Positions 44,658 through 64,000 are shown, counted from the stretch's first letter. The stretch: DNA of 64,000 bases from Candidatus Bathyarchaeota archaeon (GCA_963827165.1 CAWGZR010000009.1:263156-327155), one strand, 5' to 3'. Made by a program: numbers and translations. Notes: generated from the sequence alone by a model not told the origin.

Positions 44658-44734
44658 GCCGTCGTGGCTCAGCCCGGTAGAGCGGCTGGCTGTTAACCAG
44701 TCGGTCAAAGGTCCGAATCCTTTCGACGGCGCCA
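44658..44734 (+). tRNA. tRNA-Asn (GTT), CCA encoded, no intron
   Basis: Acceptor GCCGTCG/CGACGGC, D-arm GCTC..GAGC, anticodon arm CTGG-CTGTTAA-CCAG, T-arm AAAGG-TCCGAAT-CCTTT, ends GCCA. Confidence 0.95.
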
Positions 44735-44813
44735 CTTCCCAGTTACAAGATATACCAGTTTTTTTCTTTTATCTACTTCTAACAATCCTCAAAACGCCCA
44801 AGTTTTCCGTTGT

Positions 44814-44936
44814 ATGGACTGCTTTTTTTGGTGTGGTCGATGCGCGGAACCAAACTCGAACCGTAAAAGTTCAATTAATGTGATAGCTTCAAGCAGCGCT
44901 TGCTCTAAGTTCCAGCCAAGAGGAGGCAGCCTTTAA
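44814..44936 (+). CDS. Small Cys-rich viral ORF, possibly 5'-truncated
   Basis: (FRC)MDCFFWCGRCAEPNSNRKSSINVIASSSACSKFQPRGGSL*; TAATG overlap with the next ORF. Confidence 0.5.
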   Translation: MDCFFWCGRCAEPNSNRKSSINVIASSSACSKFQPRGGSL

Positions 44937-45199
44937 TGGGCTACGTCGCTGACTCGTTTAAGCCTCCGTGTCTTCTGGGACACTATCCTTGCATGAGTAG
45001 TCCTTCATCAGAAGACTGCGCTTTAATTGATACTTGCTCTAAGGATTTGTTTTTCTGCAAATTCGCGAAGCTTGCATATCCTGATGGAACTGACATTTCT
45101 TGCAAGGTCTACAGTTTTAATAATCGAAATTGCACGCATGGCAGCGGATCCTGCTCTAGGCGAGCAGTTCTCGAGCATCGATGTTTTGGAGGACTCTAA
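44936..45199 (+). CDS. Small Cys-rich viral protein
   Basis: 87 aa with 9 Cys; GAGGAGG upstream; coupled to neighbours. Confidence 0.55.
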   Translation: MGYVADSFKPPCLLGHYPCMSSPSSEDCALIDTCSKDLFFCKFAKLAYPDGTDISCKVYSFNNRNCTHGSGSCSRRAVLEHRCFGGL

Positions 45200-45201
45200 T
45201 T

Positions 45202-46168
45202 TTGTCTGAAGCATCTGATAACACCGCCAACACTTCTAGCAACACCTGTTTAAACAGTTTAGCGGATAAATGCCGAGGTATTGAGGCGAGAGCTTATCAC
45301 ATTATTGATGCTTCTGAAGTTGAGTTAAAACCCTGTGAAATTGTCCGAATCATTCATAGCGGCAAGAAGCCCAAGGACATAACGCCTGGGCAATATACCA
45401 CTGTCCGTGTAGTTTGCGCAAAGTTGCTTCAAAAAGGTCTAGTGGTTCAGGCCTTATCCGGGAGCATACTGTAACAAAATCACCTACGGGGTGCGGTTTG
45501 TTCCGCTTTGCGTGCACAACATAAGCTTGCGGTCTTTTGTCTGTCAAGATGTCAAGAGCTGGGAGAAGGATGAGTTTGTGGGAGGCGTCAAGATTCATGT
45601 TTGTTTTGGTTCTGAGAGGCGCAAGATTAGCGGTTATATCGCTTGCGATGTAGGAGGGATGAGTCATGATGCCTGTATGTTGGCTATACATCGTTGGTTT
45701 GACATTGCTGAAGGACATTTGGGTTTTGGCTTAGTTGATTTGGAGTTGTTGACTTTTGAGTTCAACAAGGACTATCATGGTGTCAGGATTGATGGGGTTC
45801 AGTGCATCACTAAAACTGATTTACTGGGGATTATTGACAGGACATACCAAAAGGAAGAGGATGTTATTCGTCGAGAGCGGAAATTCACTAAGTCTATGAG
45901 TGTTAATAAGTTTGAACAAGAGATCCGCAAGGGCACTTTTGAAATTGAGAAGTCTCAGGAACGCTATGAGCTGCAGCAAGAAGTCAAACGCAATTCTGAA
46001 GCGTTAAAGTTTACCAATAGTCGGCTGCTGCAGATGGAAAAGATGCAGGAAGCAACTTTTACGGTTCTTGTGAAAATTAATGAGGCTTTAACTAAGCTTG
46101 GCGATGTTGAGGGCGATCCTGGGCGGTTGGTTGATGGCCAGAAAAAGCAAGGGGAGTATGCCAGATGA
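45202..46168 (+). CDS. Viral wHTH-containing protein, possibly a replication initiator, split by a frameshift near 45450
   Basis: ORFs 45181-45474 and 45491-46168 join into one frame (…LVVQPYPGAYCNKITYGVRFVPL…) if one G of caggcct is removed. GGAGG precedes TTG 45202. Confidence 0.6.
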
Positions 46169-46320
46169 CGCTTCAGATTTTGGTTGATTGCCCTTGCCGT
46201 CATTGTCCGTGGAAGCTTCGGAGTAAATGTGACCGTTACGCGAGAGTTTGCATGGAGTTGCGTAGTTGCAGTAACTGCGACCAACATATTGAGCTATGCG
46301 TCAAGGAGGCTTTTGGTTGA
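46165..46320 (+). CDS. Small Cys-rich (Zn-finger-like) viral protein
   Basis: MTLQILVDCPCRHCPWKLRSKCDRYARVCMELRSCSNCDQHIELCVKEAFG*; ATGA overlap upstream and TTGA overlap downstream. Confidence 0.6.
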   Translation: MTLQILVDCPCRHCPWKLRSKCDRYARVCMELRSCSNCDQHIELCVKEAFG

Positions 46321-46664
46321 GTTATAAAGAGCGGATGCACCCAAAAGTTAGTGCTGCCGAAATGGAGGTTTTCAAGGCGTTAAGTGCCGAGGGCTTAACT
46401 GGCGGGTTGCTTACTCAGGAGCGAATCATTCTCAAGTCTACTGTTCCTGATTTTTGCTGGCCGCTTAAGTGCAAAGTTGTTTTTTTGGATGGCAGGCAAG
46501 TTCACTCAACAGATAGAGCGGAGAGTCGAGATAAAGAAATCGATAATTTGCTGGAGCTGCAAGGTTGGGATGTTTTGCGGATTGTTTATGATCCGCCGTT
46601 GACTGCAAAGGCTTTGGAAGTTGTGATGGCTCAGGTTAAAGATTTTCTCGGGGAGGCTTCTTAG
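46317..46664 (+). CDS. Vsr/DUF559-like PD-(D/E)XK endonuclease
   Basis: S.AE, PDF, VVFLDG..VH and RD...D..L...GWDVLRI. Confidence 0.8.
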   Translation: MSYKERMHPKVSAAEMEVFKALSAEGLTGGLLTQERIILKSTVPDFCWPLKCKVVFLDGRQVHSTDRAESRDKEIDNLLELQGWDVLRIVYDPPLTAKALEVVMAQVKDFLGEAS

Positions 46665-46724: not shown

Positions 46725-47645
46725 ATGCCTCAGGCATGGGAAAAGTCCATGCTTTTCAGAAGCCACAGGTATCGTCAGTCGCTGAAAAAGTGGCTGCATG
46801 TTTCTTCCTACAGCCCAAAGAAGGGTTATTTCATTGCAATATTTGATGATGTTACTGAACGCAAGAAAGGTGAAGAAGCATTACTGGAGAGTGAGTTAAA
46901 ATACAAGAATCTTGCCACACATCTCGAAGAGGTCGTTGAGGAACGCACTAGACAACTAAAAGATTCTGAACGTTTAGCCGCCATCGGTGCAACGGCAGGC
47001 ATGGTTGGGCATGACATTCGCAATCCATTGCAGGCTATTACGGGCGATTTGTATTTAGTTAAGACTGAATTGGAAGAGCTTCCCGATCACCAACAAAAGA
47101 AAAATGCTATGGAAAGTTTGGATGAAATTCAAAATAACATTGATTACATAAACAAGATAGTTGCTGATCTGCAAGATTATGCCAGACCGCTTAATCCACG
47201 TGCCCAAGAAGCCAATATAAAATCAATATTTAATGAAACCGTGAAAAAGAACGGCATACCCAAAAACATCGAAGTGACTACTGAAGTGGAAGACAAAGCC
47301 GAAAGAATAATGGCGGACCCAGATTATCTCAAGCGTATTGTCTCTAATTTAACCCTAAATGCAGTGCAAGCCATGCCTAACGGCGGAAAATTAACTATTC
47401 GAGCATTTGCCGACAAGAAAACTAATGATGTTTTGATAACGGTAAAAGACACGGGGGTTGGAATCCCTGAGGACGTAAAGCCAAAGCTGTTTACGCCTAT
47501 GATGACTACCAAATCTAAAGGTCAAGGGTTCGGTTTAGCAGTGGTTAAACGCATGGCTGAAGGTTTAGGAGGAACAGTCACTTTTGAAAGTACCGAAGGA
47601 AAAGGTACTACTTTCATAGTACGGTTGCCCCCCCCCAAGAGCTAA
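46725..47645 (+). CDS. PAS-histidine kinase, N-terminally truncated
   Basis: Only the C-terminal half of a PAS domain (KWLHVSSYSPKKGYFIAIFDDVTERKK), then GHDIRNPL and HATPase boxes. Confidence 0.85.
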   Translation: MPQAWEKSMLFRSHRYRQSLKKWLHVSSYSPKKGYFIAIFDDVTERKKGEEALLESELKYKNLATHLEEVVEERTRQLKDSERLAAIGATAGMVGHDIRNPLQAITGDLYLVKTELEELPDHQQKKNAMESLDEIQNNIDYINKIVADLQDYARPLNPRAQEANIKSIFNETVKKNGIPKNIEVTTEVEDKAERIMADPDYLKRIVSNLTLNAVQAMPNGGKLTIRAFADKKTNDVLITVKDTGVGIPEDVKPKLFTPMMTTKSKGQGFGLAVVKRMAEGLGGTVTFESTEGKGTTFIVRLPPPKS

Positions 47646-47850: not shown

Positions 47851-50800
47851 TTGCCTACAAACAAAGAAACCAGTAATAAGCAAACGATTGCCAAACGCAA
47901 ACAAGTTAAAGAAAAAAGCGAGCTAAGCTCTCAGACTTTAATTGGTATTTTGGGCAGCATTCAAGAAGCTCTTTATGTGCTTGATCATGACTGGAACATC
48001 GTTTATATTAATAATATTGCGGCGGGCAAAGCCGGCTTGCCTAAAAATTTATTGGGTAAGAATTTTTGGGAAGTTTATCCAAAACTTCTTGGAACAATAA
48101 TTGAAGAAAATTATCGTTCTGCTATGAAAAACAGAGAAATTAAACGCTTTGAGAGTCGCGGGCATTATAGCGACCCATTGTATGAAATTTCTGTCTTTCC
48201 CTCAGCCGAAGGAATTACTGTCTTAGGTACAAATATTACTAAGCGAAAGGAAATAGAAGACGCACTAAGAGCTACTGAGCAACAGTTAAAGATTATAACA
48301 GAAAACTCTCAAGACGGAATCAACCTACTTGAATTAAAAACCGGGAAATATATTTTTATGAATCCTGCGCAGGTAGCACTAACTGGTTTTACAGCCGATG
48401 AAATAAACAACATCTCAGCTGAGGAAGCATATCAACGTACGCATCCAGAGGACAGACAACTTACGATTGCTCAGCAAAAGAAGGTCGCTGCAGGCGATGA
48501 TACTTCTGAACCGGTAGAGTATCGCTGGAAGGTTAAATCAGGAGAATATCGATGGTTCAGCGACAGCCGAAAGCTTGTCCGTGATGAAAAAGGCAAGGCA
48601 GTAGCAATGGTCGGTATAAGCCGCGACATTACTGAGCGCAAGAAAGCCGAAGAAGCTCTAAAACAAAGTGAAGAGCAAGCCCGCCAACGCGCTGAAGAAC
48701 TGCAGAAGCTTATGGATATGATTCCAGCTGCCATCTGGGTATCGAATGATCCAGAATGCAAGGTTATAGTTGGAAATCAAACTGCAAACCGTTTCTATGA
48801 AGCGGCTGGAGGAGAAAACGTTTCAGCAGGACCGGCGAGCGGAGGACAGAAAGATACAACAAGGCGATTTTTCAAAGATGGAAAAGAACTCCCGCCTGAA
48901 GAGCTCCCAATGCAAGAGGCAGCTTCTAAGAAGAAAGAAATCAAGAACTCTGAGCTGGAGGTTTTGGCGCCTAGCGGAAGAAAAATGACAATATTAGGCA
49001 GCGCTAAGCCGCTTCTAACTAATGAAGGAAAGGTACGGGGTTGTCTTGCAGCGTTTATCGATATCACTGAACGCAAGAATACCGAAGATACGCTGAAGAC
49101 AACATTAAACCGCTTTTACAGAAGCCTTGCGAATATGCATGGGGCTATTTTGCTTGTTTCTGATGAGAGTCGAGTTGAGTTTGCCAACCAATCATTTTGC
49201 GACTATTTCAGTTTAAAGGAATCACCTTCAGACTTAATAGGACTCACCGCCGGTGTAATCATTGAAAAAATCAAGAAAGGTTACGTGTATCCTGACCAAG
49301 AAGACACTCGAATCAAGGAAATAGTTACTGCAGGGAAAACCGTGACCGGCGAAGAAGTTGCAATGAAGGGCAACCGCACTTGTCTGCGAGATTTTATTCC
49401 TCTACCAACGGCTGGAAAAGCGTTCAGTCGATTATGGCATCATATGGATATAACGGATCGCAAGAGAGCCGAAGACACAATAAAGGAAAGTGAGCAGCGC
49501 TGGGCAACTACTCTATCAAGCATCGGTGACGCAGTTATCGCTACTGATACAAAAGGGAAAATAGTATTCATGAATAATCAGGCTGAGTCGTTAACCGGTT
49601 GGAAACTAGAGGAGGCCTCGCAGAAACCAACTAAAACAGTTTTTAACATTATCAATGAGCGTACTCGTTTAGAGGTTGAAAGCCCAATTGAACGAGCGCT
49701 AAGAGAGGGCATAGTTGTTGGCTTAGCAAATCATACTGTCTTGATTCGAAAAGATGGCAAGGAGATCCCGGTTGACGATAGCGGAGCACCCATAAAAGAT
49801 GGAAACGGCAAAACTACTGGCGTTGTACTTGTGTTCCGAGATATCACACAGCGAAGGCAAGCTGACCAAGACCGCGAAAGGCTCTCAGCTATTGTTGAAT
49901 CCACTGACGATGCTATCATCGGAAAGACTCTTGATGGAACTATTACCTCTTGGAACAAAGCTGCAGCGAAACTGTATGGATATACAGCAAGTGAAGTGAT
50001 TGGTAGGCCTATTTCTGTTGTTATTCCAACGGATCACATGAATGAGTTTAAGCAGATTCTCGATAGGCTTCACAACGGTGAGCGGATTGAACACCGCGAC
50101 ACAATACGGCTTCACAAAGATGGTACTCGCTTAGATGTTGATGTTACGGTTGCCCCGATCAAGAACAGATACGGAGAGATTGTTGGTGCATCAACAATCG
50201 CTCGTGACATTACTGAACGCAAGAAGGTAGAGGAAGCACTTAAAGAAAATGAGCAGCTCTACCACACTGTGTTTGATAATAGTCAAGATGGATTCCAATT
50301 GATTGAGTTAATATATGACAAAAACGGAAAGCCAATTGACCACAAGTTCTTGAAAGTTAACCACGCCTATGAATCAATAATTGGAGTAAAAGCAGACGAC
50401 ATTCTGGATAAGACTGCAAAATATATTTCTCCAAACCAAGAGTTCCATTGGCTTGAGGTTCCTGATAGAGTTGCCAAAACTGGAATATCAGAGCATGTTG
50501 AGCTATATAACAAGGACATTGGCAAGTGGCTAGACTGTTTCTACTTCCGCTATTCCAAAAATGTTGTTGGGACACTTTTCAGGGATATCACAGGGCGCAA
50601 AAAATTGGAGAAACAACTTCAAGATTCAGAACGTTTAGCCGCTATCGGTGCCACGGCAGGTATGGTTGGACATGATATTCGAAATCCACTGCAGGCTATA
50701 ACAAGCGACGTATTCTTGGCTAAGTCGGAATTAGCTTGCTTTCCAGAGAGTGAAGAGAAAAAGAATGCTTTGGAGAGCATGTGTGAAATTGAGAAAAATA

Positions 50801-51324
50801 TAGATTACATTAACAAAATTGTGCAGGACCTTCAGGACTACGCTAGACCTCTTAACCCAAAGATTGAAGAAAGCGACTTGAAATCCATTGCCGAGGCATT
50901 CATTACAAAAAACGGTTTGCCAAAAAATATTAGGGTTGAATTAAAAATAGCGGATCAAGCTAGATGGATTAGAGCTGACTCATACTACCTGAACCGAATC
51001 TTGTTTAATTTAGTTACTAACGCTGTTCAGGCAATGCCCAACGGAGGCACTTTAACAATAAGTGCGCATAAAGAAGCGAACGACACTATCTTGGCGGTAA
51101 AAGATACGGGCGTTGGAATTCCGTGTGAAGTTCAGGATAAAATGTTTACGCTCATGTTTACAACAAAGTCTAAAGGACAAGGCTTCGGTTTGCCGGTTGT
51201 TAAGAGGATGACAGAATCGCTGGGAGGCACAGTTACATTTGAGAGCCAAGAGGGAAAAGGAACAACCTTCACTGTACGTTTGCCCCCCCCCCAAGAACTA
51301 AACGGTAAATTGGTATACAAGTGA
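47851..51324 (+). CDS. Multi-PAS sensor histidine kinase
   Basis: About 7 PAS/PAC repeats ending DITERKK-like, H-box GHDIRNPL, NAVQAM, DTGVGI and GQGFGL. Confidence 0.93.
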   Translation: MPTNKETSNKQTIAKRKQVKEKSELSSQTLIGILGSIQEALYVLDHDWNIVYINNIAAGKAGLPKNLLGKNFWEVYPKLLGTIIEENYRSAMKNREIKRFESRGHYSDPLYEISVFPSAEGITVLGTNITKRKEIEDALRATEQQLKIITENSQDGINLLELKTGKYIFMNPAQVALTGFTADEINNISAEEAYQRTHPEDRQLTIAQQKKVAAGDDTSEPVEYRWKVKSGEYRWFSDSRKLVRDEKGKAVAMVGISRDITERKKAEEALKQSEEQARQRAEELQKLMDMIPAAIWVSNDPECKVIVGNQTANRFYEAAGGENVSAGPASGGQKDTTRRFFKDGKELPPEELPMQEAASKKKEIKNSELEVLAPSGRKMTILGSAKPLLTNEGKVRGCLAAFIDITERKNTEDTLKTTLNRFYRSLANMHGAILLVSDESRVEFANQSFCDYFSLKESPSDLIGLTAGVIIEKIKKGYVYPDQEDTRIKEIVTAGKTVTGEEVAMKGNRTCLRDFIPLPTAGKAFSRLWHHMDITDRKRAEDTIKESEQRWATTLSSIGDAVIATDTKGKIVFMNNQAESLTGWKLEEASQKPTKTVFNIINERTRLEVESPIERALREGIVVGLANHTVLIRKDGKEIPVDDSGAPIKDGNGKTTGVVLVFRDITQRRQADQDRERLSAIVESTDDAIIGKTLDGTITSWNKAAAKLYGYTASEVIGRPISVVIPTDHMNEFKQILDRLHNGERIEHRDTIRLHKDGTRLDVDVTVAPIKNRYGEIVGASTIARDITERKKVEEALKENEQLYHTVFDNSQDGFQLIELIYDKNGKPIDHKFLKVNHAYESIIGVKADDILDKTAKYISPNQEFHWLEVPDRVAKTGISEHVELYNKDIGKWLDCFYFRYSKNVVGTLFRDITGRKKLEKQLQDSERLAAIGATAGMVGHDIRNPLQAITSDVFLAKSELACFPESEEKKNALESMCEIEKNIDYINKIVQDLQDYARPLNPKIEESDLKSIAEAFITKNGLPKNIRVELKIADQARWIRADSYYLNRILFNLVTNAVQAMPNGGTLTISAHKEANDTILAVKDTGVGIPCEVQDKMFTLMFTTKSKGQGFGLPVVKRMTESLGGTVTFESQEGKGTTFTVRLPPPQELNGKLVYK

Positions 51325-51428
51325 GCATAGATAGTTTTTTAAGAAAGAGACTATATCTTCTGCGCTGAATTTGGCAGGGGAGCACTTGCTCTAGGCTATT
51401 CTGAGTTCGCCCCCTTCATCCAAAAGTT

Positions 51429-51716
51429 GTGGTGAGCGGCTTTCTAGGCATGACGCATAAACGAGGAAACAGACGTTCGTCCAAATCCTATGCGATTCGC
51501 GAACAGCTGCATGATGCACATAGGTTTGTTAGCGGTGAAGCTTTTCGTGACAGACTAATCAGTGAAACTGTCTGCTTAACTACCATTGATGCGGTTGTGC
51601 GGCACTTAGCAGAAACATTTGAGCAAGCCGCCGCCGAAGCCGTGCCTGAAGTAGAGCCAGGTCTAGTTCTTAGCAACACTGTTGGCGACGGCGCATTCCA
51701 ATCGTTAGAAGCATAA
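51429..51716 (+). CDS. Hypothetical viral protein
   Basis: ORF leads into the AAGGAGG RBS of the next gene; start more likely ATG ~51449. Confidence 0.5.
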   Translation: MVSGFLGMTHKRGNRRSSKSYAIREQLHDAHRFVSGEAFRDRLISETVCLTTIDAVVRHLAETFEQAAAEAVPEVEPGLVLSNTVGDGAFQSLEA

Positions 51717-51729
51717 GGAGGCATAATAG

Positions 51730-52005
51730 ACGGAGACAAATGAAGAGGAAATCGAGCAACCAGAGATTTGTCCGGACGCTAACAAAAACCCCGTTTGCCC
51801 TTACATCACTGCCATACACACAAACACGGCTCAAGTAAACAGAATAGAAAATGCGCTAGTGGGAGAAGACTTGCAGTCGGGCCTTGTGGCTAAAGTTCAA
51901 CAGCTTGAAGTAACCCAAAAAATCCTCATAGCGTTAGGAAGCACGAGTCTGGTTGGCTTGGTTAGTCTTGTCATTATCTTGTTTGAGAGGTTGGTGATCC
52001 GGTAG
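51730..52005 (+). CDS. Coiled-coil + C-terminal TM protein (XhlA/holin-like); start codon damaged or non-canonical
   Basis: Missing from the ORF track: TETNEEEIEQPEICPD…RIENALVGEDLQSGLVAKVQQLE…LVGLVSLVIILFERLVIR*. AAGGAGG RBS is followed by ATAG-ACG; the stop overlaps the ParB GTG. Confidence 0.65.
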   Translation, partial: TETNEEEIEQPEICPDANKNPVCPYITAIHTNTAQVNRIENALVGEDLQSGLVAKVQQLEVTQKILIALGSTSLVGLVSLVIILFERLVIR

Positions 52006-52538
52006 TGTCAATTGTTATTCCAGCCGCTGAAACGGTAAAGCTCAGCGAAGTTAAGACGGATGGGCAGAACCCAAATAAAATGAGCAGAGAGCAGCTCGAA
52101 CGGCTCAAGAGTTCTATCAAGAAATGGGGCTTCATCGTTCCCATCATTACCAACAAGGACCTCTTGATAGCGGATGGAGAACAGCGTTATACAGCTGCTA
52201 AAGCCTTGGGTATGGCTGAAGTTTCAGTTATTCGCTTGCCCGTTGAAGACGTCGACCGCAGGTTACTTAGACAGGTTCTCAACAAGCTCAGAGGCGAACA
52301 CCAAAAAGACTTAGACCAAGCCGAATTTGATCGCATAATCCAAGCGGGAAGAGAAGATGATCTCAAGTATCTGCTTATGCTTTCCGATGAAAAACTGAAA
52401 AACTCAAATGAAGAGAAAGGCATCAGCTTGGCTGCCTCTTTTGAAGTTATTATAGAATGTGATGATGAGACAATCCAAGAAGCCGTTTATAACAAACTAA
52501 TCGGTGAAGGATACAAATGCCGAGTTTTGACTTTGTAA
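52005..52538 (+). CDS. ParB/Sulfiredoxin N-terminal domain protein
   Basis: NPNKM….LKSSIKKWGFIVPII….IADGEQRY.AAK.LG. Confidence 0.88.
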   Translation: MSIVIPAAETVKLSEVKTDGQNPNKMSREQLERLKSSIKKWGFIVPIITNKDLLIADGEQRYTAAKALGMAEVSVIRLPVEDVDRRLLRQVLNKLRGEHQKDLDQAEFDRIIQAGREDDLKYLLMLSDEKLKNSNEEKGISLAASFEVIIECDDETIQEAVYNKLIGEGYKCRVLTL

Positions 52539-57394: not shown

Positions 57395-58056
57395 AGTGTC
57401 AATTTATGTCAACTCCCCCGGAAGATGTTGAAGGCCAGCGTATAGCAGCGTTGGAAGAGGCTCTTGGAATAACCTCAGAAATGCCTCAACAAGTCTGCGC
57501 AGCGGGTAAACAGCCAAAGGAACCGATGGTGAGAATGACCTTGCCGCTTTTTCATCGACGCAAAACAATGCTTATAGCCTATCATAGCGGTCACCTAAAT
57601 CCTTTAGCTCTTAGGCAGATGGCTATTGAATTTGAATGCACTGAAGCTGCTTTGCTTGATGATTTAGAAGACCGTGCGAATTGGGAGCAGTTTATCTGGG
57701 CAAATCAAGAGGCTCATGAGGATGGTAAGGCGTTGCTTAATCAGTTGCAGTTGGCTAGGGAAGAAGCCCTTTTTTTGATGAAAACCTGTAAGTCTGCTAA
57801 TGCTCGGGTCGGCGCGATTGGCAAGTTCATTGACTCTATTAAAGCTGAGATTGAGGTTGGGCAAAGTTTAGGTTTGTTGCCTAAGCAAATATCGCCAGCG
57901 GTTGTTGTGCAGCAGAATAACGTTACCCAGGTAACTGCTAAGACTGAGACTAAAATAACGATTGATATGACCAAGATGTCTGAAGATGATAGAAAAGCCC
58001 TCCTACGCGCTGAAGAGGCTCTCTCAAGAGCAGAGACAGCAGCTGGCCCGCAGTAA
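57391..58056 (+). CDS. Putative terminase small subunit
   Basis: Helical protein with an HTH-like segment directly upstream of and overlapping TerL; C-terminal IDMTKMSEDD motif. Call rests mainly on position. Confidence 0.55.
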   Translation: MKCQFMSTPPEDVEGQRIAALEEALGITSEMPQQVCAAGKQPKEPMVRMTLPLFHRRKTMLIAYHSGHLNPLALRQMAIEFECTEAALLDDLEDRANWEQFIWANQEAHEDGKALLNQLQLAREEALFLMKTCKSANARVGAIGKFIDSIKAEIEVGQSLGLLPKQISPAVVVQQNNVTQVTAKTETKITIDMTKMSEDDRKALLRAEEALSRAETAAGPQ

Positions 58057-59476
58057 TCTGCAGTATTACGCACGTTATCTCGGGTACATTGACACTGCTT
58101 GGTTTCAAGACGAATGGTATGAACTGCTTCAACCCGAAAATGACCAGAAGCATTTTAGCCCTTTGCCCTGGCATAACAGAGCGTTAAAACAGTTTCACCT
58201 TGAAGCACCACGCAAACACGCAAAAAGCGAATGCGTCTCCATAAACTATCCCTCCTGGCTAATTGGGAACTTTCCCGAAATTAGAATCGGGATCGTCAGC
58301 AAAACAGCCCCTTTAGCCGAGCAAACTGTTGCGGCCATACGCAACCGGATTGAGAACGACCAGCACTACATCAACGTTTTCGGCGACCTGAAGCCTAAAA
58401 CCCCGCAGAAATGGACCGATAGCGAATTTTACGTTAACCGCAAAACCATCAGCAAGTTCCCAACGCTATACGGCTGCGGTCTAGGCGGCTCCTTAACCGG
58501 ACGTGGCTTTGACCTAATCATTGCCGACGACATCATAGATGAAGAAAACGTTAACACGCCCAATCAGCTCGAGAAAGTCAACCGATGGTTCTTCAAAGTC
58601 CTGCTGACAACTCTGTTTTCCCATGGCGCCACTTTAGTGATCGGGACTCGGTGGCATTACGCAGATCTTTATAATGACTTAATTCAGTCAGTGGTGAAAG
58701 GCGGCAAAGGTTGGCCGTTTAAAGTCTATAAAGCCATCCAAAACTATGAGGGCGTCGAGAAAGGCGAAGTGCCTCAGGTGCTCTGGCCGCAAGTGTGGTC
58801 TTACGAGCGTTTGATGCAGAAAAAAGCCGATATCGGCACAGTCTATTTCAATTCACAATATCAGAATGACCCGACAGGCATGATGGGTGACTTGCTTAAG
58901 TCGGAGTGGCTGCATCCCTGGAATGAAACAGATAACAACTTTGTGCCCTCGGCTCACTTGCCAAAATATGCTGGTGTGGACCCAGCTCTCGGCGAAGGCG
59001 ACTTATTTGCAGTTAGCACCGCGAGCTTTGACCGGGTTCTTAACCGGATGTATCTCTATGATGTTTACGCTAAGCTTTTGCCGTATCCGGCTGCAGTGCA
59101 ATTGTTGCTGCAGCTTCACGGGATCCATAACTATGCTAAGATCTATGTGGAGTCAAATGCTTTCCAAAAAGTAATCATGTATATGCCCCAGCTGCAAGGA
59201 CTCCCGATCGTGCCTACAGTAACCAGCAAAGGTAAAGAAGAACGCCTGATCCCGCTAAGCAGCCACTTTGAATCTAGACGTGCAACCCTTAACCCCGCCT
59301 GGCCTTACACTCAAAGCGAGTTCTATCAAGAGTGGGTCCAGTTCCCAAGGAGTGCACATGACGACGCACTGGACTGCGTGGAAGTTATGGCTCGAAACCT
59401 TCTCGGCGTCACCGCGATGCCGCAAGGAAAAGGCGTAGCTGTAGTTAAGAAAAAACAACCAATCGAGGATGATTAA
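57986..59476 (+). CDS. terL: Terminase large subunit
   Basis: Walker A APRKHAKS, G..LTGRGFDLIIADD (Walker B), VIGTRWH, SQYQNDP, nuclease GVDPA, VESNAFQ and FP.SAHDDALD. Confidence 0.95.
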   Translation: MIEKPSYALKRLSQEQRQQLARSNLQYYARYLGYIDTAWFQDEWYELLQPENDQKHFSPLPWHNRALKQFHLEAPRKHAKSECVSINYPSWLIGNFPEIRIGIVSKTAPLAEQTVAAIRNRIENDQHYINVFGDLKPKTPQKWTDSEFYVNRKTISKFPTLYGCGLGGSLTGRGFDLIIADDIIDEENVNTPNQLEKVNRWFFKVLLTTLFSHGATLVIGTRWHYADLYNDLIQSVVKGGKGWPFKVYKAIQNYEGVEKGEVPQVLWPQVWSYERLMQKKADIGTVYFNSQYQNDPTGMMGDLLKSEWLHPWNETDNNFVPSAHLPKYAGVDPALGEGDLFAVSTASFDRVLNRMYLYDVYAKLLPYPAAVQLLLQLHGIHNYAKIYVESNAFQKVIMYMPQLQGLPIVPTVTSKGKEERLIPLSSHFESRRATLNPAWPYTQSEFYQEWVQFPRSAHDDALDCVEVMARNLLGVTAMPQGKGVAVVKKKQPIEDD

Positions 59477-59478: not shown

Positions 59479-59679
59479 ATGGTCGATGAAATTTTGGTTT
59501 CTGCAAGTGCAAAAGACGAGATTGTCAAAGTTCTCAGTATGGAACACGCATCACGTATGCGTAGCTTACATATTCGCATTAACGGGGTAGAACAATTCAA
59601 GAATGTGATAATTGATGAAATAGAAGTTTCTATCACGCTTGAAGCCTCTAAGAAATCTGAACCTGAAAAGAAACAGTGA
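59479..59679 (+). CDS. Small hypothetical viral protein
   Basis: Tightly packed between TerL and portal; GAGGATGA RBS. Confidence 0.55.
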   Translation: MVDEILVSASAKDEIVKVLSMEHASRMRSLHIRINGVEQFKNVIIDEIEVSITLEASKKSEPEKKQ

Positions 59680-59689
59680 GAGGTTTTAG

Positions 59690-61157
59690 ATGGTTCTGCT
59701 GAGAAAAGATCTTTCGTTAACGATACCTAACCCGCTACGCAACGTGCCAAATGCCGTAGCAGTTTCTCAGCGTGAAACAGAGGTTCCCGTTGCTTGGCGT
59801 GGCGACTGGAACTTAATGGAGTACGTCAACAACTACAACTTGAAAGCCTCCGGAATCGGCTTTGTTAGCAGCCCATATACTCAGCCTTTGGGATCGCATT
59901 TGGGGAGTAACACCCGTTGAGGATCTGCCGAAGTTTAAGGCGTTATATAGCTTTGTTCCGCGTATCCAAGCTTCAATAGATGTTAAAGTTAACCTAGAGA
60001 TTAGCAACGGGTTCACTTTGGAAGGCGGAGCAAATACTTTCCGCGATTTCTTGGAAGAATGGATTGAAAGCCATGATATGCTTGACACAATGCGATCAGA
60101 AGAGAAGGACGCGCAGGTTTTCGGCAGCAGCTACACTGAGCCGGTTATGGATGAAGACTCAGCCAAAGTTGAGTGGCTTAAAACTCTTGATCCAGAGTAT
60201 ATGCGGATTCGCCAAGATTGCTACAAAAACATATTCGGCTATGCCCAACTTAACTCATACCCGCCCGCAATTTTTTACCCTGAAGAAATTTATCGAACCC
60301 TCAATAATGTTTCCAGCTGGTTTTTTGAGAACGCTTACGGAACTTCTTCTCTGCGTTCAATATTGCATATTCAAGCTTTGATCGATGACTTCCAAGCTGA
60401 TATGGCTAAGATCATGAAGGTTTACACTAAGCCGATGTTGATTGCGAAATGTGGTGGGAACGGTGCGCCGGGAATGCCTGAGCCATGGAGCGATCCACAA
60501 CTAGATGTTATGTCAAATACTCTGGCTATGCGTGATCAAGGTACGGATCTGACTGTAAGAGGCGATGTCGAGGTCACGCCAATGTCTTCTTTAACCAAGG
60601 ATCTGAAGGCAGAGTGGTGGATTGAATACTTGGAGCGGCAACGTGACAGCCAACTTGGTGTGCCTAAGATCTTTTTGGGAGAAACAGAAGGAAGCAACAG
60701 GGCTACTGCTGATGTTGTAATGCAGGAGTTTATAACTAGGCTGCGTATGCGTCAGAAACACCGCAGTGGCGTCTATGAACTGCAGCTATTTCCTTTGATC
60801 TTACGTGGCGACTTCCCAGAAGCCTTGATCATACCGGATAAGATCCCTAAGATAAAATGGAAGCCGATTTGGGAACCGCCAACAGATGTCAAGATGAGCC
60901 GCGTGATCGACCTGTACAATAACATGTTGATGGGCGATAAAGAAGCACGTGGCGAACTGGGCCTTCCGGAAAAGATCGATGGAGTCTTGAAAGCTCAGCC
61001 GACAGTTAACGCAGCTCAGCCAGTACCGGAGACACTGCCTGAAACAAGGCAATTTCAGACACCTGGGCAACCGCGGAAGGCTTTAGGTAAGGGTGTTCCT
61101 GCGCAGCTTGTAAGGGATGGGGCGGGGGCTTCGTATCTTGTGCGAGCTCTGTCTTGA
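59690..61157 (+). CDS. Portal protein, split by a frameshift near 59880
   Basis: Position after TerL; A.VFG..Y.E, L..LDP..MRI, YGTS.L and LGVPKIFLG…SNRATA…EAR.ELGLP. ORF 59690 (GAGAGG RBS) joins the 59862 frame as …SSPYTSLWDRIWG… after a one-base removal. Confidence 0.85.
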
Positions 61158-62476
61158 CTCCACGACAACATAACCGCAAAGAAAATAGATACCGCAACTA
61201 TCAATGTCAAAATAGCCAACATCGGAGAAAACTCTGGAACCGTTGGCGATGTTGAAGATATAGGCGGAGAGGGTTGAGGGACCTCAATTGCACCAAAGGC
61301 GTAAACCTTACCGTCGAAATCGGTATCTGAAGATGCGCCTATATAGACCACGCCGTTTGCAATAGCAGGAGAAGACACCACAGCGGAATTTTTGCCAGGA
61401 ACCGCGAAGCTCCATATGAAAGCACCCGTTGAAGCGTTCAATGCATACATATAGCCGTCTATTGAGCCACCATAGACAACTCCGTCTGCAACGGCAGGGG
61501 AAGAACTTCTGTCTATACTGTTGCTCCACAAGTATGCACCCGTTGTTGCGTTCAAAGCGTAAAAATTGTCTTCATATGAGCCAAAATAGACAACCCCGTT
61601 CGCCACTGCAGGAGTAGAAGTAATCGTAGAACTACTGGGGGAGCCAGTGGGATAGCTCCATGTTTTTGTCCCCGTGGAAGCGTTGAGTGAGTAAATGTTG
61701 CCGTCCTCTGAATTAACATAGACTAAGCCATTTGCAACTGTGGGGGAAGAAGATCCGTAGTTCCCTGTTGTATAGTTCCATATATTGGTGCCTTTGGCAG
61801 CGTTCAAAGCGTACAAATGGCCCTCTCCTGAGATTGCATAGACAAAACCATTAGCAACGGCGGGAGAAGAATCCGCGTAACTGCCGATTGTGCAGTTCCA
61901 TGCTTTTGTTCCTTTGGCAGCATTCAAAGCGTAAACGTTGCCATCGGTACAGGTTACGTATACTAAACCGTTTGCAACGACTGGAGAAGAAAACCAAGAA
62001 TCGCCGATTTTGTAACTCCATATTTTTGTGCCCGTTGCAGCGTTCAATGCGTACAAATTGTCGTCTTCCGCACTGACATAAACTACACCATTAGCAACAG
62101 CAGGAGAAGACGCAACAGCTTGCCCGTTGGTGTTGTAGCTCCATAAGTCTTCACCCGTCGCTGCATTCACAGCGTACATGTTGCCATTATCAGAGCCCAC
62201 GTAGACTACACCGTCTAAAACGGCAGGGGAAGATGAGACCGAGTAATAAGCTGCAAAAGTCCAAAGGGTGAGGGTTTTGTTTGTAAGTGGCCCTGTTGAA
62301 GTAGAATAACCTGTATGTGTCAGGTCATGATGGAACATGGGCCACCAGTCTACGGCTGACTGCTGAGCATTAACCTTTGACCCATATATTGAAAACATCG
62401 ATAAACACAGAATAGCAACAAATACAATTACCAATGTTTTCTTCAAGTTGCCTTTCATTCCTAATTGCAAAAGCAT
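61055..62476 (-). CDS. Secreted PQQ-like (BamB-type) beta-propeller with PEF-CTERM-like sorting signal; reads through antisense into the portal
   Basis: WPMFHHD..HTG, about 8 repeats SSPAVANGVVYV…LYALNAATG…W, and VPEF + TM. The stop is only reached 103 bp inside the portal ORF. Confidence 0.9.
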   Translation of the reverse strand: MLLQLGMKGNLKKTLVIVFVAILCLSMFSIYGSKVNAQQSAVDWWPMFHHDLTHTGYSTSTGPLTNKTLTLWTFAAYYSVSSSPAVLDGVVYVGSDNGNMYAVNAATGEDLWSYNTNGQAVASSPAVANGVVYVSAEDDNLYALNAATGTKIWSYKIGDSWFSSPVVANGLVYVTCTDGNVYALNAAKGTKAWNCTIGSYADSSPAVANGFVYAISGEGHLYALNAAKGTNIWNYTTGNYGSSSPTVANGLVYVNSEDGNIYSLNASTGTKTWSYPTGSPSSSTITSTPAVANGVVYFGSYEDNFYALNATTGAYLWSNSIDRSSSPAVADGVVYGGSIDGYMYALNASTGAFIWSFAVPGKNSAVVSSPAIANGVVYIGASSDTDFDGKVYAFGAIEVPQPSPPISSTSPTVPEFSPMLAILTLIVAVSIFFAVMLSWSQDRARTRYEAPAPSLTSCAGTPLPKAFRGCPGV

Positions 62477-62541
62477 GGAGTAAAACTATCCTCACAGATT
62501 ACTCTTTGAAACGGTTTACGCTAAAAGGCTTTCCGTAAAAG

Positions 62542-62578
62542 TTTCTTGACTAAGTTTAGTCCAAATTTCTTGACCAAG
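62542..62578 (-). promoter_or_regulatory. Paired CTTAGTCAAGAAA-type motifs upstream of the BRE/TATA of the PQQ-propeller gene
   Basis: TTTCTTGACTAAG at 62542-62554 and TTTCTTGACCAAG at 62566-62578. Confidence 0.55.
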
Positions 62579-62597
62579 CATGGAGGGTGGAAAAGAG

Positions 62598-62885
62598 ATG
62601 TATCGAGAGGCGGCTAACGCGATTCATGCTGTAAGAGCTGTACAAGCTGCGGTTGTTAACCCTAACGTGAAATCTTCTACTTGGTGCTTTCACAATTCGC
62701 AAAGTCCTAACACGTGCGTTAAATGCGAAGGTTACGACGGCGACGAATACGAGCTTGAAGACCCAGATGATCTGCGAAGTATCTTTCCCTATGGGGAATT
62801 TGTTGCTGATGATACATTCGCCTGCAATGTACATCCAAATTGCGGCTGTTTCTGCGTAAAAACCTCAGACAAATTAAACACTTAA
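62598..62885 (+). CDS. Minimal head morphogenesis protein (Mu gpF/SPP1 gp7 C-terminal motif)
   Basis: W…TCVKC..YDG…HPNCGC between portal and protease; GGAGG RBS before ATG 62598. Confidence 0.7.
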   Translation: MYREAANAIHAVRAVQAAVVNPNVKSSTWCFHNSQSPNTCVKCEGYDGDEYELEDPDDLRSIFPYGEFVADDTFACNVHPNCGCFCVKTSDKLNT

Positions 62886-62894
62886 CCGGAGAAT

Positions 62895-63989
62895 ATGCGT
62901 TTGGAATTAAATTACGACGTCGACGTTAAAGCCAGCCTAGACGATCTCAGGAAAACAGGCGGTATCGAGGGGCAAGCTATAGACTCTTCTGTTAACAAAA
63001 ACCGTTGGCAGGTTCCAGAGGAGGATCTAGATTATTTTTGCTCTTCCCTTCAAAAAGCTGATCTGCGAATTAATCACGGCACTTCCACTGAGACCGTGAA
63101 AGGAGTAGTTACTAAGGCTAAGCGTGTCGGTGATCAGGTTTTCTTTGAAGCTGAGGTCTCTGGGGACCCTGTGCTTTTGACGCAGATTGAAAAGAAATAT
63201 TTGCGTATGGTTAGCCCCAAAGTAGTCTCAGATAACATCGTCTGCAGCTTATGCAGCGGCAAAACCAGAGACGCTGATATGACGATGATTCACCTTTGCG
63301 CAGGTGCTTGGGAGATTGTGCATCAGCCCCGCTGTGTAGAACTTAGTATTGTTGCGGATGGCGCTTATGAAAATAACAATTTTCGGTTTAAAGGGTTTGC
63401 AGCTGCCATGGATGAATCTCAGCGCCAAGGGCTAATTGCCTCTATCTGTGAGTGCATGGATAAGTCGCATTGCCCTTGTGGCCTAAAAGATTTGAAAGCA
63501 AAGTTACAGCCTGACTTACACGGGCTTAACATAAAAAAAGAAGGTAAAATTATGAGTGCAAGTGAAAACAAACCACCAATCACTCCGCCAGCAATGCCAG
63601 CTCCAGGGTCAAACCCGAAAGCCGGCACAGAATTGACGTATCAACAGCTAGAAGATGAATTAACAAAGAATACAGCGCAGATCATGGATGCCTGCAAAGC
63701 CGCAATTGCCGCTTCCGAAAAAAATCTGGAAGCAAAGCTAGAAACAACAGTGAAAGCTGCAGTTGAAGCCGCAGTTCCGAAGCCTCGCCCAAACGGGAAA
63801 GGCCAGTCAGGACCCGGAATCGGTGCAGGCGCAGGGACCCCTGGAATCGATGACGCACAACGCCTAAACAACATGTTTGCACGCAAGGGCAGTTTGAAGA
63901 AAGCTGGGCTCGAATTAGCTGCTGCCGCGAAACGGATGGACAGCTTAACCGCGGATATAACGCATACGGATCCTGAGGAGGCAGAGTAA
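62895..63989 (+). CDS. Prohead protease/scaffold protein
   Basis: IEG.AI….N.N.W, NH, G.V..A, VS, CSLC and ELSIV..GAY.N protease core, followed by a low-complexity coiled-coil scaffold-like tail. The next gene starts at 63991. Confidence 0.8.
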   Translation: MRLELNYDVDVKASLDDLRKTGGIEGQAIDSSVNKNRWQVPEEDLDYFCSSLQKADLRINHGTSTETVKGVVTKAKRVGDQVFFEAEVSGDPVLLTQIEKKYLRMVSPKVVSDNIVCSLCSGKTRDADMTMIHLCAGAWEIVHQPRCVELSIVADGAYENNNFRFKGFAAAMDESQRQGLIASICECMDKSHCPCGLKDLKAKLQPDLHGLNIKKEGKIMSASENKPPITPPAMPAPGSNPKAGTELTYQQLEDELTKNTAQIMDACKAAIAASEKNLEAKLETTVKAAVEAAVPKPRPNGKGQSGPGIGAGAGTPGIDDAQRLNNMFARKGSLKKAGLELAAAAKRMDSLTADITHTDPEEAE

Positions 63990-64000
63990 GATGAGTTCTT

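Follow-up and report, generated by a model that had tools for sequence, protein, structure and literature searches.

The question raised by this locus is what occupies the DNA between a tRNA-Asn gene and the end of an archaeal contig. The window, that is the whole stretch analysed, comprises 64,000 nucleotides (GCA_963827165.1, CAWGZR010000009.1:263156-327155) of a Bathyarchaeia genome from peat soil, and the initial annotation, made from the sequence alone, had read its part from 44,658 onwards as a head-tail provirus in a probable Bathyarchaeia host. An integrated head-tailed virus of the HK97-fold type adjoining tRNA-Asn was borne out, as the tRNA and the genes for the large terminase subunit (TerL), the portal and the protease are real (Table 1); so was the host, relatives of TerL with 97-71% identity being found in Candidatus Bathyarchaeota archaeon records. 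In our judgement the region from 44.7 to 64.0 kb is very probably the left ~19 kb of a temperate, HK97-fold, Caudoviricetes-type archaeal virus integrated at tRNA-Asn and truncated by the contig end. The window ends where contig C9 ends; thus, the provirus breaks off shortly past the protease gene, and the downstream checks drew on other contigs and on related loci.

Table 1. Features of the tRNA-Asn locus and of the adjoining element (window coordinates).
Feature	Coordinates	Strand	Evidence or remark
tRNA-Asn(GTT), intact	44658..44734	+	ARAGORN; Rfam RF00005, 66.4 bits; left attachment site
Junction and conserved non-coding leader	44737..44935	+	Alignment of C9, C3 and C5 copies
87-aa Cys-rich protein	44936..45199	+	First gene of conserved left arm; no family
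~321-aa protein, one gene	45202..46168	+	Large uncharacterised family
DUF559 (Vsr-like endonuclease fold)	46296..46664	+	PF04480, E 4.4e-6; first insertion gene
Histidine kinase (HisKA + HATPase_c), host-like	46725..47645	+	Pfam; within insertion
1157-aa multi-PAS histidine kinase, host-like	47851..51324	+	Pfam; within insertion
Two small conserved genes (ORF 51429-51716; frame 51757-52002)	51340..52002	+	Ahead of ParB gene in sister copies
ParB_N-domain protein	52005..52538	+	PF02195, E 5.3e-8; phrog_620, E 1.3e-20
ABC-type ATPase (52517-53200) and GNAT acetyltransferase (53176-53613), overlapping frames	52517..53613	+	Pfam ABC_tran, Acetyltransf
66-aa ORF	53591..53791	+	Conserved in C3 copy, 78% aa identity
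737-aa NosD/beta-helix + beta-propeller protein	53840..56053	-	Antisense; variable cargo slot
Two small conserved ORFs, 105 and 78 aa	56297..56850	+	
Winged-helix DNA-binding protein, 121 aa	57029..57394	+	PF14947, E 6.3e-11
Candidate small terminase (TerS), 221 aa	57391..58056	+	Assigned by position (overlaps TerL start) and HTH-like features only
TerL, 496 aa, intact	57986..59476	+	phrog_38, E 5.9e-91, residues 14-479
66-aa conserved ORF	59479..59679	+	Between TerL and portal
Portal gene	59690..61157	+	phrog_9232, E 3.5e-17 (on ORF 59862-61157)
473-aa PQQ-repeat beta-propeller protein	61055..62476	-	Antisense cargo inserted between portal and next head gene
101-aa conserved head-module ORF	62580..62885	+	No family
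Capsid maturation (prohead) protease	62895..63989	+	Predicted assemblin / T4 gp21-type fold, residues ~20-170

In this genome the element occurs in at least five related copies, at different tRNA genes; the one studied here lies on C9, and two others are referred to by their contigs, C3 and C5. The tRNA-Asn gene is the only one of its kind in the genome, and the left boundary of the element abuts its 3' end. A 19-nt core (44718-44736) comprises the 3' strand of the T-stem, the acceptor strand, CCA and one further base. As judged by flank comparison with metagenome contigs, the first ~11 nt of the junction are similar to the native tRNA flank and are followed by element-type sequence; from ~44800 onwards the sister copies are clearly homologous (blastn homology starts at 44800/44808). 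The leader ends in a GAGGAGG box ahead of the ATG at 44936. The first ORF had been thought to begin in mid-gene, but ORF 44656-44883, which overlaps the tRNA, matched no PHROG family, and the DNA there is the conserved non-coding leader.

A viral contig misjoined to host DNA after the tRNA, through faulty assembly or binning, would also give such a boundary. The element does lie at a contig end and the assembly contains single-letter errors, but the stretch is covered by contigs of four sequencing runs, with run X1 depth in 30 of 30 bins, and no joint was reported at the boundary. Furthermore, the C5 copy lies deep inside a 970-kb contig, and tRNA-Asn carries related elements in an independent MAG as well as in two metagenome contigs (L095, L096), where the leader of this element type directly follows the tRNA. 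The loci at which this site is occupied are L011, L095 and L096. An artefact of this kind is hardly credible.

In all three copies compared (C9, C3, C5) the left arm begins 10-80 nt after a tRNA 3'-end sequence, and its genes keep their order in C3 and C5. The 87-aa protein, for which no match was found in Pfam or PHROG, has homologues in C3 (84% aa identity), C5 (78%), L016, L025 and L026. The gene for the ~321-aa protein is assembled as two ORFs (45181-45474 and 45491-46168); 199 homologues were found, most of them 300-370 aa long among the 120 matches listed, and the best homologue among the matches listed (321 aa, 97% identical) aligns with 45202-45465 in one frame and with 45449-46165 in another. 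Pfam, PHROG, PADLOC and Atlas gave no hit for this protein. Left-arm genes are present in three of 74 related loci, two of these being IMG/VR viral contigs that begin with them. The arm (44.8-46.2 kb), far from being deleted as had been suspected, is a conserved part of the element.

The next conserved part is centred on the ParB_N-domain protein, which recurs at nine additional places in the genome. The two small genes ahead of it were found by tblastn with the 134-aa and 109-aa proteins of the C5 copy. The ATPase and GNAT frames jointly match one phage family of unknown function (phrog_11143, E 6.8e-57 and 8.9e-24), and their two-frame layout is identical in L011. It is only from 56180 onwards that the C3 copy is nearly identical, and modules are shuffled between relatives, as would be expected if the region consisted of two tandem elements, one a small island next to the tRNA (44.8-56 kb) and the other a provirus unrelated to it, from ~56 kb. 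Tandem arrays do exist in this genome: the C3 copy has a 16-nt tRNA-like core twice, in tandem (att-like cores at 289004 and 298809), and at the C5 copy 17 nt of the tRNA-Pro(TGG) end are repeated, with tRNA-Pro itself 5.6 kb away. However, the window contains no second copy of the tRNA-Asn core, and in the C3 copy, L016, L025 and L026 a single collinear stretch holds the left arm, the ParB module and the genes for packaging and head. These observations make a division into two elements very unlikely, and the region is treated below as a single provirus.

A ~5-kb insertion at 46.3-51.3 kb is confined to this copy. Its host-like genes encode DUF559 and two histidine kinases, and homologues of them were found in none of the 74 related loci; the shorter kinase has paralogues on C3, C12, C13 and C4. 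Two cargo genes are antisense. At the position of the 737-aa gene the C3 copy has four unrelated genes (zinc-ribbon, transglutaminase-like), and NosD/beta-propeller paralogues of the 737-aa protein are frequent within and beside sister elements. The PQQ gene is present in L011, whereas in L014, L016 and L027 the match to 60970-61157 continues into the match to 62607. That the host-like kinase block and the two antisense cargo genes interrupt the element is a point against our preferred reading. It can be asked whether the locus is a dead, immobile remnant, a piece of mere chromosomal cargo that lost its integrase and tail genes and was overwritten by host genes. The insertion speaks for this, as does the fact that the portal gene, the 321-aa gene and a gene at 51.4 kb are split as assembled.

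The splits in part disappear when the contigs of individual runs are compared. A single surplus letter at ~59882 breaks the portal gene into ORFs 59690-59920 and 59862-61157, and in alignments the gene corresponds to a single 505-aa ORF in C3 and L011. Short-read contigs of run X1 (at 51447 also X3) are one letter shorter at four places, including the breaks at 51447 and 59882; the sole X1 contig at ~59882 is without the extra letter, the omission of which leaves the portal frame open for 488 aa. Of the contigs without the letter, the two listed match without other differences. The break in the 321-aa gene (~45450-45465) is outside the coverage of this check. Against a dead remnant also stands the dN/dS of TerL, which is 0.07 relative to the C3 copy and likewise relative to L011. 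For the candidate TerS, which had no Pfam or PHROG match, dN/dS is 0.085; its nearest Atlas clusters are viral, with HTH leads, and it is conserved in 11 of 74 loci.

The order TerL, portal, protease was as annotated, but the packaging genes start at 57.4 kb, 12.6 kb after the tRNA, and not ~80 bp from it. The gpF-like gene assigned to this series was not recovered, since no Mu F / SPP1 gp7-like gene was found after the portal with Pfam or PHROG, and the interval between portal and protease consists of the PQQ gene and the 101-aa ORF. The latter, considered for a gpF-like identity, had no match in either collection; 17 of 74 loci have a homologue, as has the C5 copy (46%). The other candidate, the 364-aa protein, is a protease by its predicted fold. 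Its model (pLDDT ~90 for residues 20-170; C-terminal part long, helical and of low confidence) matched herpesvirus assemblins and T4 gp21 in Foldseek with probability 1.0 (2pbk_A, E 4.1e-5; 5jbl_A, E 5.4e-4, TM 0.58, rmsd 3.8 A over 151 columns). None of its 70 homologues has a Pfam domain, and H61 and S107 are invariant.

What lies beyond the contig end was approached through the relatives. After the protease homologue, the sequence of five of five related loci examined (L011, L014, L016, L025, L029) passes into a stretch that matches C13:1-1340 or further at 79-95% identity, with a gap of ~170 nt in L025. No shared k-mers link the ends of C9 and C13, and we infer the join from these relatives, without overlapping sequence; C13 could instead continue the C3 copy. 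The major capsid gene that was to be looked for downstream was found on C13, to which this copy would be linked by that join. The model of C13:382-1275 has the HK97 fold (pTM 0.67; Foldseek 2ft1_G, HK97 Head II, E 6.3e-11, TM 0.70), with 364 PDB matches at E<=0.001. Of the 87 homologues, 86 carry PF25209 Phage_capsid_4, for which the protein itself scores below threshold (20.9 vs 27 bits). As placed by the relatives, the gene would lie ~0.5 kb past the window end. C13:2537-2896 is HK97-gp10-like, and C13 also has head-tail connector homologues. The order in the C5 copy is TerL, portal, 106 aa, protease homologue, scaffold (phrog_673), capsid, neck (phrog_5) and tape measure. Most likely, scaffold, HK97-fold capsid and head-tail connector genes follow on C13. 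Homology of C13 to the C5 copy stops within a tRNA-like core at 6412-6426, and tail homologues are absent after C13:6419, so this copy may lack the tail module. Replacement of the tail module at an att-like junction would fit a dead remnant.

The same applies to the integrase. As had been remarked at the outset, no integrase is adjacent: none was found at 44.7-64 kb, where the Pfam scans of 20 ORFs were negative, and the only C9 member of the 12 genome-wide PF00589 matches is at 145 kb in contig coordinates, outside the window. The right end of this copy is unassembled, beyond contig C9. A search for the tRNA 3' repeat was negative in the window and gave one other exact copy of the 19-nt core in the genome, on the separate contig C12 (160654-160672, minus strand; blastn-short E 0.001), without proven link to the element. 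It is surrounded by genes for a 346-aa orphan, a PQQ/Ig surface protein and a TrmB regulator, with no PF00589 match beside it. Neither integrase nor matching right end is tied to this copy, which counts against our preferred reading. In the one relative where the integrase could be placed, the related MAG G001, an element at the same tRNA-Asn is flanked by the same 19 nt. The repeat lies on another contig, where a tyrosine integrase gene of 476 aa (PF00589, E 1.2e-4, not reaching the curated cut-off) ends 46 bp away from it, at the end opposite the left arm. By analogy, we infer that integrase and attR of the present copy are at its far right end. The element is 91.4% identical over 7.1 kb to that in L011, from another species, whereas the flanking radical-SAM gene is only 73.8% identical, as would not be expected of an immobile remnant. 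Taking these points together, we consider a dead remnant rather unlikely.

The distribution among relatives is patchy: TerL occurs in two of 36 other same-genus species genomes and in none of 24 genomes from other families of the order. Vertical inheritance at a fixed locus, as in a non-viral particle system domesticated and kept by the host (gene-transfer-agent or encapsulin type), is not what was found, the copies being located at different tRNA sites with tRNA att scars. Such a system would account for several copies per genome, most without adjacent integrase, and encapsulins, which have the HK97 fold too, are among the capsid fold matches. Nevertheless, the gene set includes TerL, portal and protease and, as seen in the C5 copy, scaffold, neck and tape measure, and 60 contigs of a viral collection (IMG/VR) carry relatives, so that domestication seems extremely unlikely. 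The suggested CRISPR check gave nothing, as none of the 17 spacers in the genome's one array matches the element, which is one more point against the provirus reading.

According to the provirus reading, the virus would integrate at the 3' end of the host's single tRNA-Asn gene and would belong to a mosaic family whose copies use different tRNA targets. The presumed order is tRNA/attL, left arm, insertion, ParB_N/ATPase/GNAT, antisense cargo, small DNA-binding proteins, putative TerS, TerL, portal, antisense PQQ cargo, 101-aa ORF and prohead protease, then scaffold, capsid and connectors on C13. A bolder proposal, which we regard as speculative and probably too far-reaching, is that one peat Bathyarchaeia genome hosts a swarm of at least five recombining head-tailed proviruses with a shared ParB/ATPase/GNAT module, tandem arrays at several tRNA genes and host genes as packaged cargo. 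The cargo would be two-component sensor kinases, and secreted beta-propeller/beta-helix proteins in antisense slots within the head module. If this were true, these viruses would be one of the main routes by which genes move and surfaces vary in this abundant, uncultured soil lineage.

The lineage had been supposed to be undescribed. In agreement with this, no close relative was found in 50,697 deposited phage records, where the identity of TerL does not exceed 30% and nothing matches the capsid protein; it is qualified by the IMG/VR relatives and by head-tailed Bathyarchaeia viruses and tRNA-flanked proviruses already in print. The closest TerL proteins among deposited phage genomes, those of Bacillus and Weizmannia siphophages (Youna2, BSP19 and others), align over 95% of the length but are only 29-30% identical, and these phages have a host of another domain of life. 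The capsid model resembles HK97 gp5 in its Head II form, and the protease model resembles T4 gp21 and herpesvirus assemblin, with invariant His and Ser, although sequence identity to HK97 gp5 and prohead protease gp4, T4 gp21 and assemblin is just 10-16%; unlike gp21 and assemblin, the protease has no Pfam family, and it has a Cys cluster as well as a long helical tail. The main texts searched do not mention the relatives' accessions PLTA01000035, PLSP01000013 and OY970340 or an IMG sample number. Head-tailed Bathyarchaeia viruses have been published as 'Fuxiviridae' and 'Kunpengviridae' (Duan et al. 2024, PMC10848311), and Kunpengvirus has an integrase and was inferred to be temperate. As described there, they have the same host class and the Caudoviricetes hallmark genes for HK97-like capsid, portal, TerL and tail; compared by description only, they differ in that a ParB/ATPase/GNAT module is not mentioned, and 'ParB', 'peat' and 'bog' do not occur in the main text of that paper. 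According to the text of PMC11705971, 38 proviruses of head-tailed archaeal viruses are complete and delimited by tRNA, integrase and direct repeats, 8 of them in Bathyarchaeia; they are objects of the same kind as the present element and were recognised by capsid gene, tRNA and direct repeats, whereas this copy is incomplete in the assembly, with no integrase at hand. Closest of all are the IMG/VR contigs L025, L026 and L029, with TerL 94-96% identical and the same gene order from left arm to capsid, but without kinase insertion or host flank and with a small NosD-like gene in place of the PQQ gene. As a virus lineage the element is real and fairly new, but its kind has been described before.

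The gene order of the element, derived from Pfam and PHROG scans of the ORFs, is listed in the table together with related features on other contigs of the genome. By both ARAGORN and Rfam the window contains a single tRNA, tRNA-Asn(GTT), and no second tRNA-Asn was found in the 14-contig genome. To the right of this tRNA nearly all long ORFs are carried by the + strand, and GC skew is positive from ~45 kb onward. The core interpretation of the initial annotation, a head-tailed provirus at tRNA-Asn, is supported by the terminase (TerL), portal and protease genes and by the evidence for the left boundary. The packaging module is real, with TerL and portal matched by profiles, but it begins 12.6 kb from the tRNA and not 80 bp after it as had been stated, and no gpF-like gene was found in the window element.

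Features of the element and of related loci (positions without prefix refer to the window; C3 to C13, other contigs of the genome; L025, an IMG/VR viral contig)
Feature	Position	Remark
tRNA-Asn(GTT)	44658-44734	ARAGORN and Rfam
87-aa Cys-rich ORF	44936-45199	
Two ORFs without family	45181-45474 and 45491-46168	
DUF559	46296-46664	
Histidine kinase	46725-47645	
Multi-PAS histidine kinase, 1157 aa	47851-51324	
Small ORF	51429-51716	
ParB_N protein	52005-52538	
ABC-type ATPase	52517-53200	jointly with GNAT, phrog_11143 (unknown function)
GNAT	53176-53613	jointly with ATPase, phrog_11143
NosD/beta-propeller protein, 737 aa	53840-56053	antisense (-)
Winged-helix protein	57029-57394	small ORFs also in this stretch
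221-aa ORF (TerS candidate)		overlaps TerL start
TerL	57986-59476	phrog_38, E 5.9e-91
Portal	59862-61157	phrog_9232, E 3.5e-17
PQQ beta-propeller protein	61055-62476	antisense (-)
101-aa ORF		between PQQ gene and 364-aa ORF
364-aa ORF (predicted protease)	62895-63989	
Capsid protein, 298 aa	C13:382-1275	HK97 fold by model; PF25209 in homologues
HK97-gp10-like	C13:2537-2896	
Sister element	C3:298.9-310.5 kb	reaches end of C3
Sister element	C5:9-40 kb	
Sister element	C13:38-41 kb	
Sister element	C11:188-191 kb	at end of C11
ParB/ATPase/GNAT triads	52005-53613; C3:301.4-303.0 kb; C5:28.5-30.1 kb; C5:330.1-331.6 kb; C10:404.5-406.0 kb; C11:189.2-190.7 kb; C12:75.9-77.5 kb; C13:38.3-39.9 kb; C4:25.2-26.3 kb	
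Antisense cargo, examples	53840-56053(-); 61055-62476(-); C13:4377-5747; L025:12297-12845	

DNA homology between the window and the copies on C3 and C5 starts at 44800-44808, and a weaker motif common to the C9 (window), C3 and C5 copies is present from ~12 nt after the CCA of the tRNA. On C3 and C5 the block of left-arm genes is preceded, at equal distance, by sequence resembling a tRNA 3' end. On C5 the preceding sequence exactly repeats 17 nt from the end of tRNA-Pro(TGG), a gene lying 5.6 kb off on the same strand; the corresponding sequence on C3 is a 16-nt core, CAGCGGCCCCACCAA, in two copies 9.8 kb apart with left-arm genes after each. Judged by this repeat structure, C3 is a tandem array of elements. 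Rfam searches of five sister loci detected no tRNA at the left end of either the C3 or the C5 copy, and ARAGORN with introns called none at C3:288-290 kb, C12:160-161.5 kb or C13:6-7 kb. The att cores in these places are fragments and not genes.

The same left arm stands at the head of the IMG/VR viral contigs L025 and L026 and is present in the MAG locus L016, in all three collinear with the ParB module and the head genes. Since C3, C5, L025, L026 and L016 all keep it, the arm belongs to the regular make-up of the element, and there is no sign of the deletion suspected in the initial annotation. The two ORFs without family that follow the Cys-rich gene are one gene: the top homologue (321 aa, 97% identical) covers both of them in two frames, and this left-arm family has 199 homologues, mostly of 300-370 aa among the 120 listed. 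The protein Atlas yielded no usable match for 45491-46168. The segment between tRNA-Pro(TGG) and its 17-nt repeat (C5:39932-45596) carries a PIN/UPF0175 toxin-antitoxin pair, an 887-aa PQQ/Ig surface protein and a Fic gene; no integrase was found in these 5.6 kb.

As assembled, the portal gene is split by one extra letter near 59882 relative to the C3 copy and to L011, a related locus in genome G001 where one ORF of 505 aa encodes the portal. Over 44001-64000 the window was aligned with Logan contigs from four metagenome runs, one of which (X1) contained 74% of the sampled words. X1 contigs were one letter short at 45206, 47628, 51447 (as were contigs of a second run, X3) and 59882, and two of these contigs (records 2 and 4) showed no other difference from the window. 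With the letter at 59882, covered by one contig only and that possibly from a close strain, omitted, the portal frame is open for 488 aa. Based on the X1 contigs and the open portal frame, the frameshifts at these places are probably assembly errors and not decay. With probable indel errors in the assembly, frameshifts elsewhere in the genome cannot safely be called pseudogenes without reads. The window letters at 51447 and 59882 each split a conserved ORF, and a further break near 45450-45465, outside the four places, splits the 321-aa gene.

The protease was identified correctly in the initial annotation. None of the 70 homologues of the 364-aa protein carries a Pfam domain, and its alignment, used as a profile against PDB sequences, gave chance-level matches only. 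In the AlphaFold model (mean pLDDT 60.9) residues 20-170 are confident (block pLDDT 79-94) and the rest is poor. Foldseek against the PDB returned 14 matches at E<=0.001, those listed being herpesvirus assemblin proteases or T4 gp21; the T4 gp21 capsid-assembly protease (5jbl_A) is aligned with the model over 151 columns at TM 0.58 and an rmsd of 3.8 A. His61 and Ser107 are invariant in an alignment of 21 of the 70 homologues. By its predicted fold the protein is a prohead protease.

Contig C9 is 327155 bases long and ends where the window ends, which is why the capsid gene and the right attachment site are not in the window. The last 300 bp of C9 shared no 21-41-mers with other contigs, and no such overlap was detected among contig ends. 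After the protease homologue, all five related loci examined (L011, L014, L016, L025 and L029) continue into DNA 79-95% identical to the initial 1.3-2.5 kb of C13, the gap in L025 being ~170 nt. From these loci we infer that C13 is the continuation of the C9 copy, and it is through these relatives that the capsid gene present on C13, whose absence downstream would have spoken against a provirus, would be physically linked to that copy. PF05065 (Phage_capsid) had no match in the genome and thus misses the capsid gene of this lineage. PF25209 (Phage_capsid_4) is precomputed on 86 of the 87 homologues of the C13 protein, and the protein itself scored 20.9 bits, below the threshold of 27. Its model (pTM 0.67) matched HK97 Head II (2ft1_G) with E 6.3e-11 and TM 0.70 in Foldseek; the 364 matches at E<=0.001 include many phage capsids, encapsulins and the archaeal virus HFTV1. 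The capsid profile produced one weak match among PDB sequences (6wkk_A, E 0.018).

Homology of C13 to the tail region of the C5 copy ends within a 15-nt tRNA-like core (C13:6412-6426). It looks as if the tail module had been replaced through recombination at a pseudo-att site, and if C13 belongs to the window copy, the tail may be absent from that copy. The 15-nt core is the att core of the C3 elements, and the homology broken there is that of a connector or tail gene.

Sister elements were sought in the genome with the phrog_38 and phrog_2 profiles and by tblastn with the window proteins. The C3 copy is 91% identical in DNA across window 56180-60617. The C5 copy, embedded in a 970-kb contig, displays the full morphogenetic order: TerL, portal, a 106-aa ORF, protease homologue, scaffold (phrog_673), a 299-aa capsid protein, neck (phrog_5), tape measure and a 1312-aa protein. 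The idea that contig C3 breaks off because its copy and the C9 copy were collapsed was rejected, the last 800 bp being only 81-88% identical. The triad of ParB_N, ABC-type ATPase and GNAT genes occurs 8-9 times in the 3.1-Mb genome, in five cases upstream of a terminase gene; at four further places no terminase was detected. PADLOC assigned no defence system to the triad or to the left-arm genes. In L016 (G020:C8:254-257 kb) TerL appears broken into four pieces, its C-terminal third being present twice, on either side of a ~0.8-kb insert, and in L025 and L029 a ~0.9-kb insert separates TerL from the portal gene.

No homologue of the DUF559 gene or of either kinase gene (46296-51324) occurs in the 74 related loci (L011-L084). 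All three are also missing from the C3 copy, where the distance from the left arm to the ParB gene is ~1 kb; the kinases have paralogues elsewhere in the genome, and another kinase gene lies immediately upstream of tRNA-Asn. The 46.3-51.3 kb segment is read as host-like DNA inserted in the window copy only. Around the start of the first kinase gene, ~90 nt (window 46666-46762) recur with 80-89% identity on C5, C11 and C12, where they precede unrelated genes. By the same kind of comparison the PQQ gene, also present in L011, is a second insertion: in L014, L016 and L027 the sequence passes directly from where the portal region ends to the equivalent of 62607, without that gene. NosD-like genes occupy other slots in other copies. 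Antisense secreted-looking beta-propeller/beta-helix genes (NosD-like, PQQ-like) were seen in slots that differ by virus copy, even between head genes, and they behave like exchangeable cargo ('morons').

No integrase adjoins the tRNA, as initially noted: PF00589 has 12 matches in the genome and none within the window element. The tRNA-Asn 3' end (19 nt, 44718-44736) has one other exact copy, at C12:160654-160672(-) (E 0.001), 6.4 kb from the end of C12. No integrase lies beside this C12 copy; its neighbours are a 346-aa orphan gene, a PQQ/Ig surface protein and a TrmB regulator. The C12 copy could be attR, an older scar or a chance occurrence. Synteny is not decisive here because the neighbourhood of tRNA-Asn has been rearranged from genome to genome: the sequences flanking this tRNA in the related genomes G001-G004, and the host side of the G001 attR, map to scattered places in the genome and not to C12. 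The 346-aa protein (P0001) has no Pfam match, no homologue in 84 loci and no paralogue in the genome; kinship to the 321-aa left-arm family was rejected (BLASTP E 0.01, family HMM 7.5 bits). The C12 segment at the core copy encodes a PQQ/Ig protein of 874 aa, similar to the 887-aa one of C5.

In the related MAG G001 an element is located directly after that genome's own tRNA-Asn, and the radical-SAM gene found 3.3 kb before the window tRNA is conserved in the G001 flank (73.8% identical). Compared with the window, the left arm of the G001 element is different and the TerS-to-protease block is 91.4% identical. Exactly one second core copy exists in G001, on another contig, 46 bp past the stop codon of a gene whose 476-aa product is a tyrosine recombinase (PF00589, E 1.2e-4, below cut-off), and the repeat common to attL and this second copy is the same 19 nt as in the window. 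With an integrase beside the second core copy of G001, the likely architecture, by analogy, would be tRNA/attL, left arm, head genes, tail genes, integrase and attR. The leader of this element type follows tRNA-Asn directly in the metagenome contigs L095 and L096; other metagenome contigs have after the tRNA an apparently native flank that they share, or show junctions of the attR type (L098, L100). This variety of junctions indicates that the tRNA-Asn site is repeatedly used by elements. The contigs (not reads) of the four runs contained neither a joint at the tRNA/element boundary nor a circular junction, which is uninformative either way.

TerL has a dN/dS of 0.07 in the comparison with the C3 copy as well as in that with L011, and the TerS candidate has one of 0.085; between the genome and G001 the element is 91% identical and the flanking host gene 74%. 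This TerL type was found in 2 of 36 other species genomes of the same genus and in none of 24 genomes from the order's other families, many of these genomes being incomplete, and relatives are encoded on 60 IMG/VR contigs. Taken together, the low dN/dS, the identity gap between element and flank, the patchy distribution and the IMG/VR relatives are consistent with a temperate virus that spreads horizontally and speak against a domesticated locus. The sole CRISPR array found in the genome (C4:272138-273642, 18 repeats of 37 nt, 1.5 kb from the contig end) did not yield the spacer matches that had been proposed as a check: none of its 17 spacers matches the genome's elements or L001-L084 over at least 22 nt.

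Bathyarchaeia are abundant in anoxic soils and sediments, few of their viruses have been described, and a firm virus-host link is uncommon for archaeal viruses known from metagenomes alone. Such a link is gained here for peat Bathyarchaeia. Except for a single fragment assigned to an Acidobacteriaceae bin, the nine closest TerL records (45-97% identical) bear the title Candidatus Bathyarchaeota or Bathyarchaeia archaeon, and the flanking host genes match Bathyarchaeota/Bathyarchaeia records at 74-80%. The window locus, its sister copies and the 60 IMG/VR relatives make up a well-conserved head-tailed lineage without a close deposited relative, and several recombining copies can coexist in one genome, with different tRNA genes as their sites. 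Annotation anchors for three families missed by profile libraries are provided by the protease, the capsid protein and the 321-aa left-arm protein. The multi-copy tandem mosaic family, the unexplained ParB/ATPase/GNAT module and the antisense cargo in the head module are the notable features of the locus, which leaves the present view of archaeal tailed viruses unchanged.

Compared with 50,697 deposited phage records, TerL is at best 30% identical (Weizmannia phage), and nothing in that collection matches the capsid protein. To this extent the lineage is undescribed, as initially proposed, but head-tailed viruses and proviruses of this kind have been published for Bathyarchaeia: the 'Fuxiviridae', the 'Kunpengviridae' and proviruses bounded by tRNA, integrase and direct repeats (PMC10848311, PMC11705971). 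In addition, 770 archaeal proviruses are reported in PMC13573593. The accessions of three relatives and one IMG sample number were absent from the main texts searched, and the supplementary tables may list them. By these comparisons the element possibly represents a new family within an already described kind of virus.
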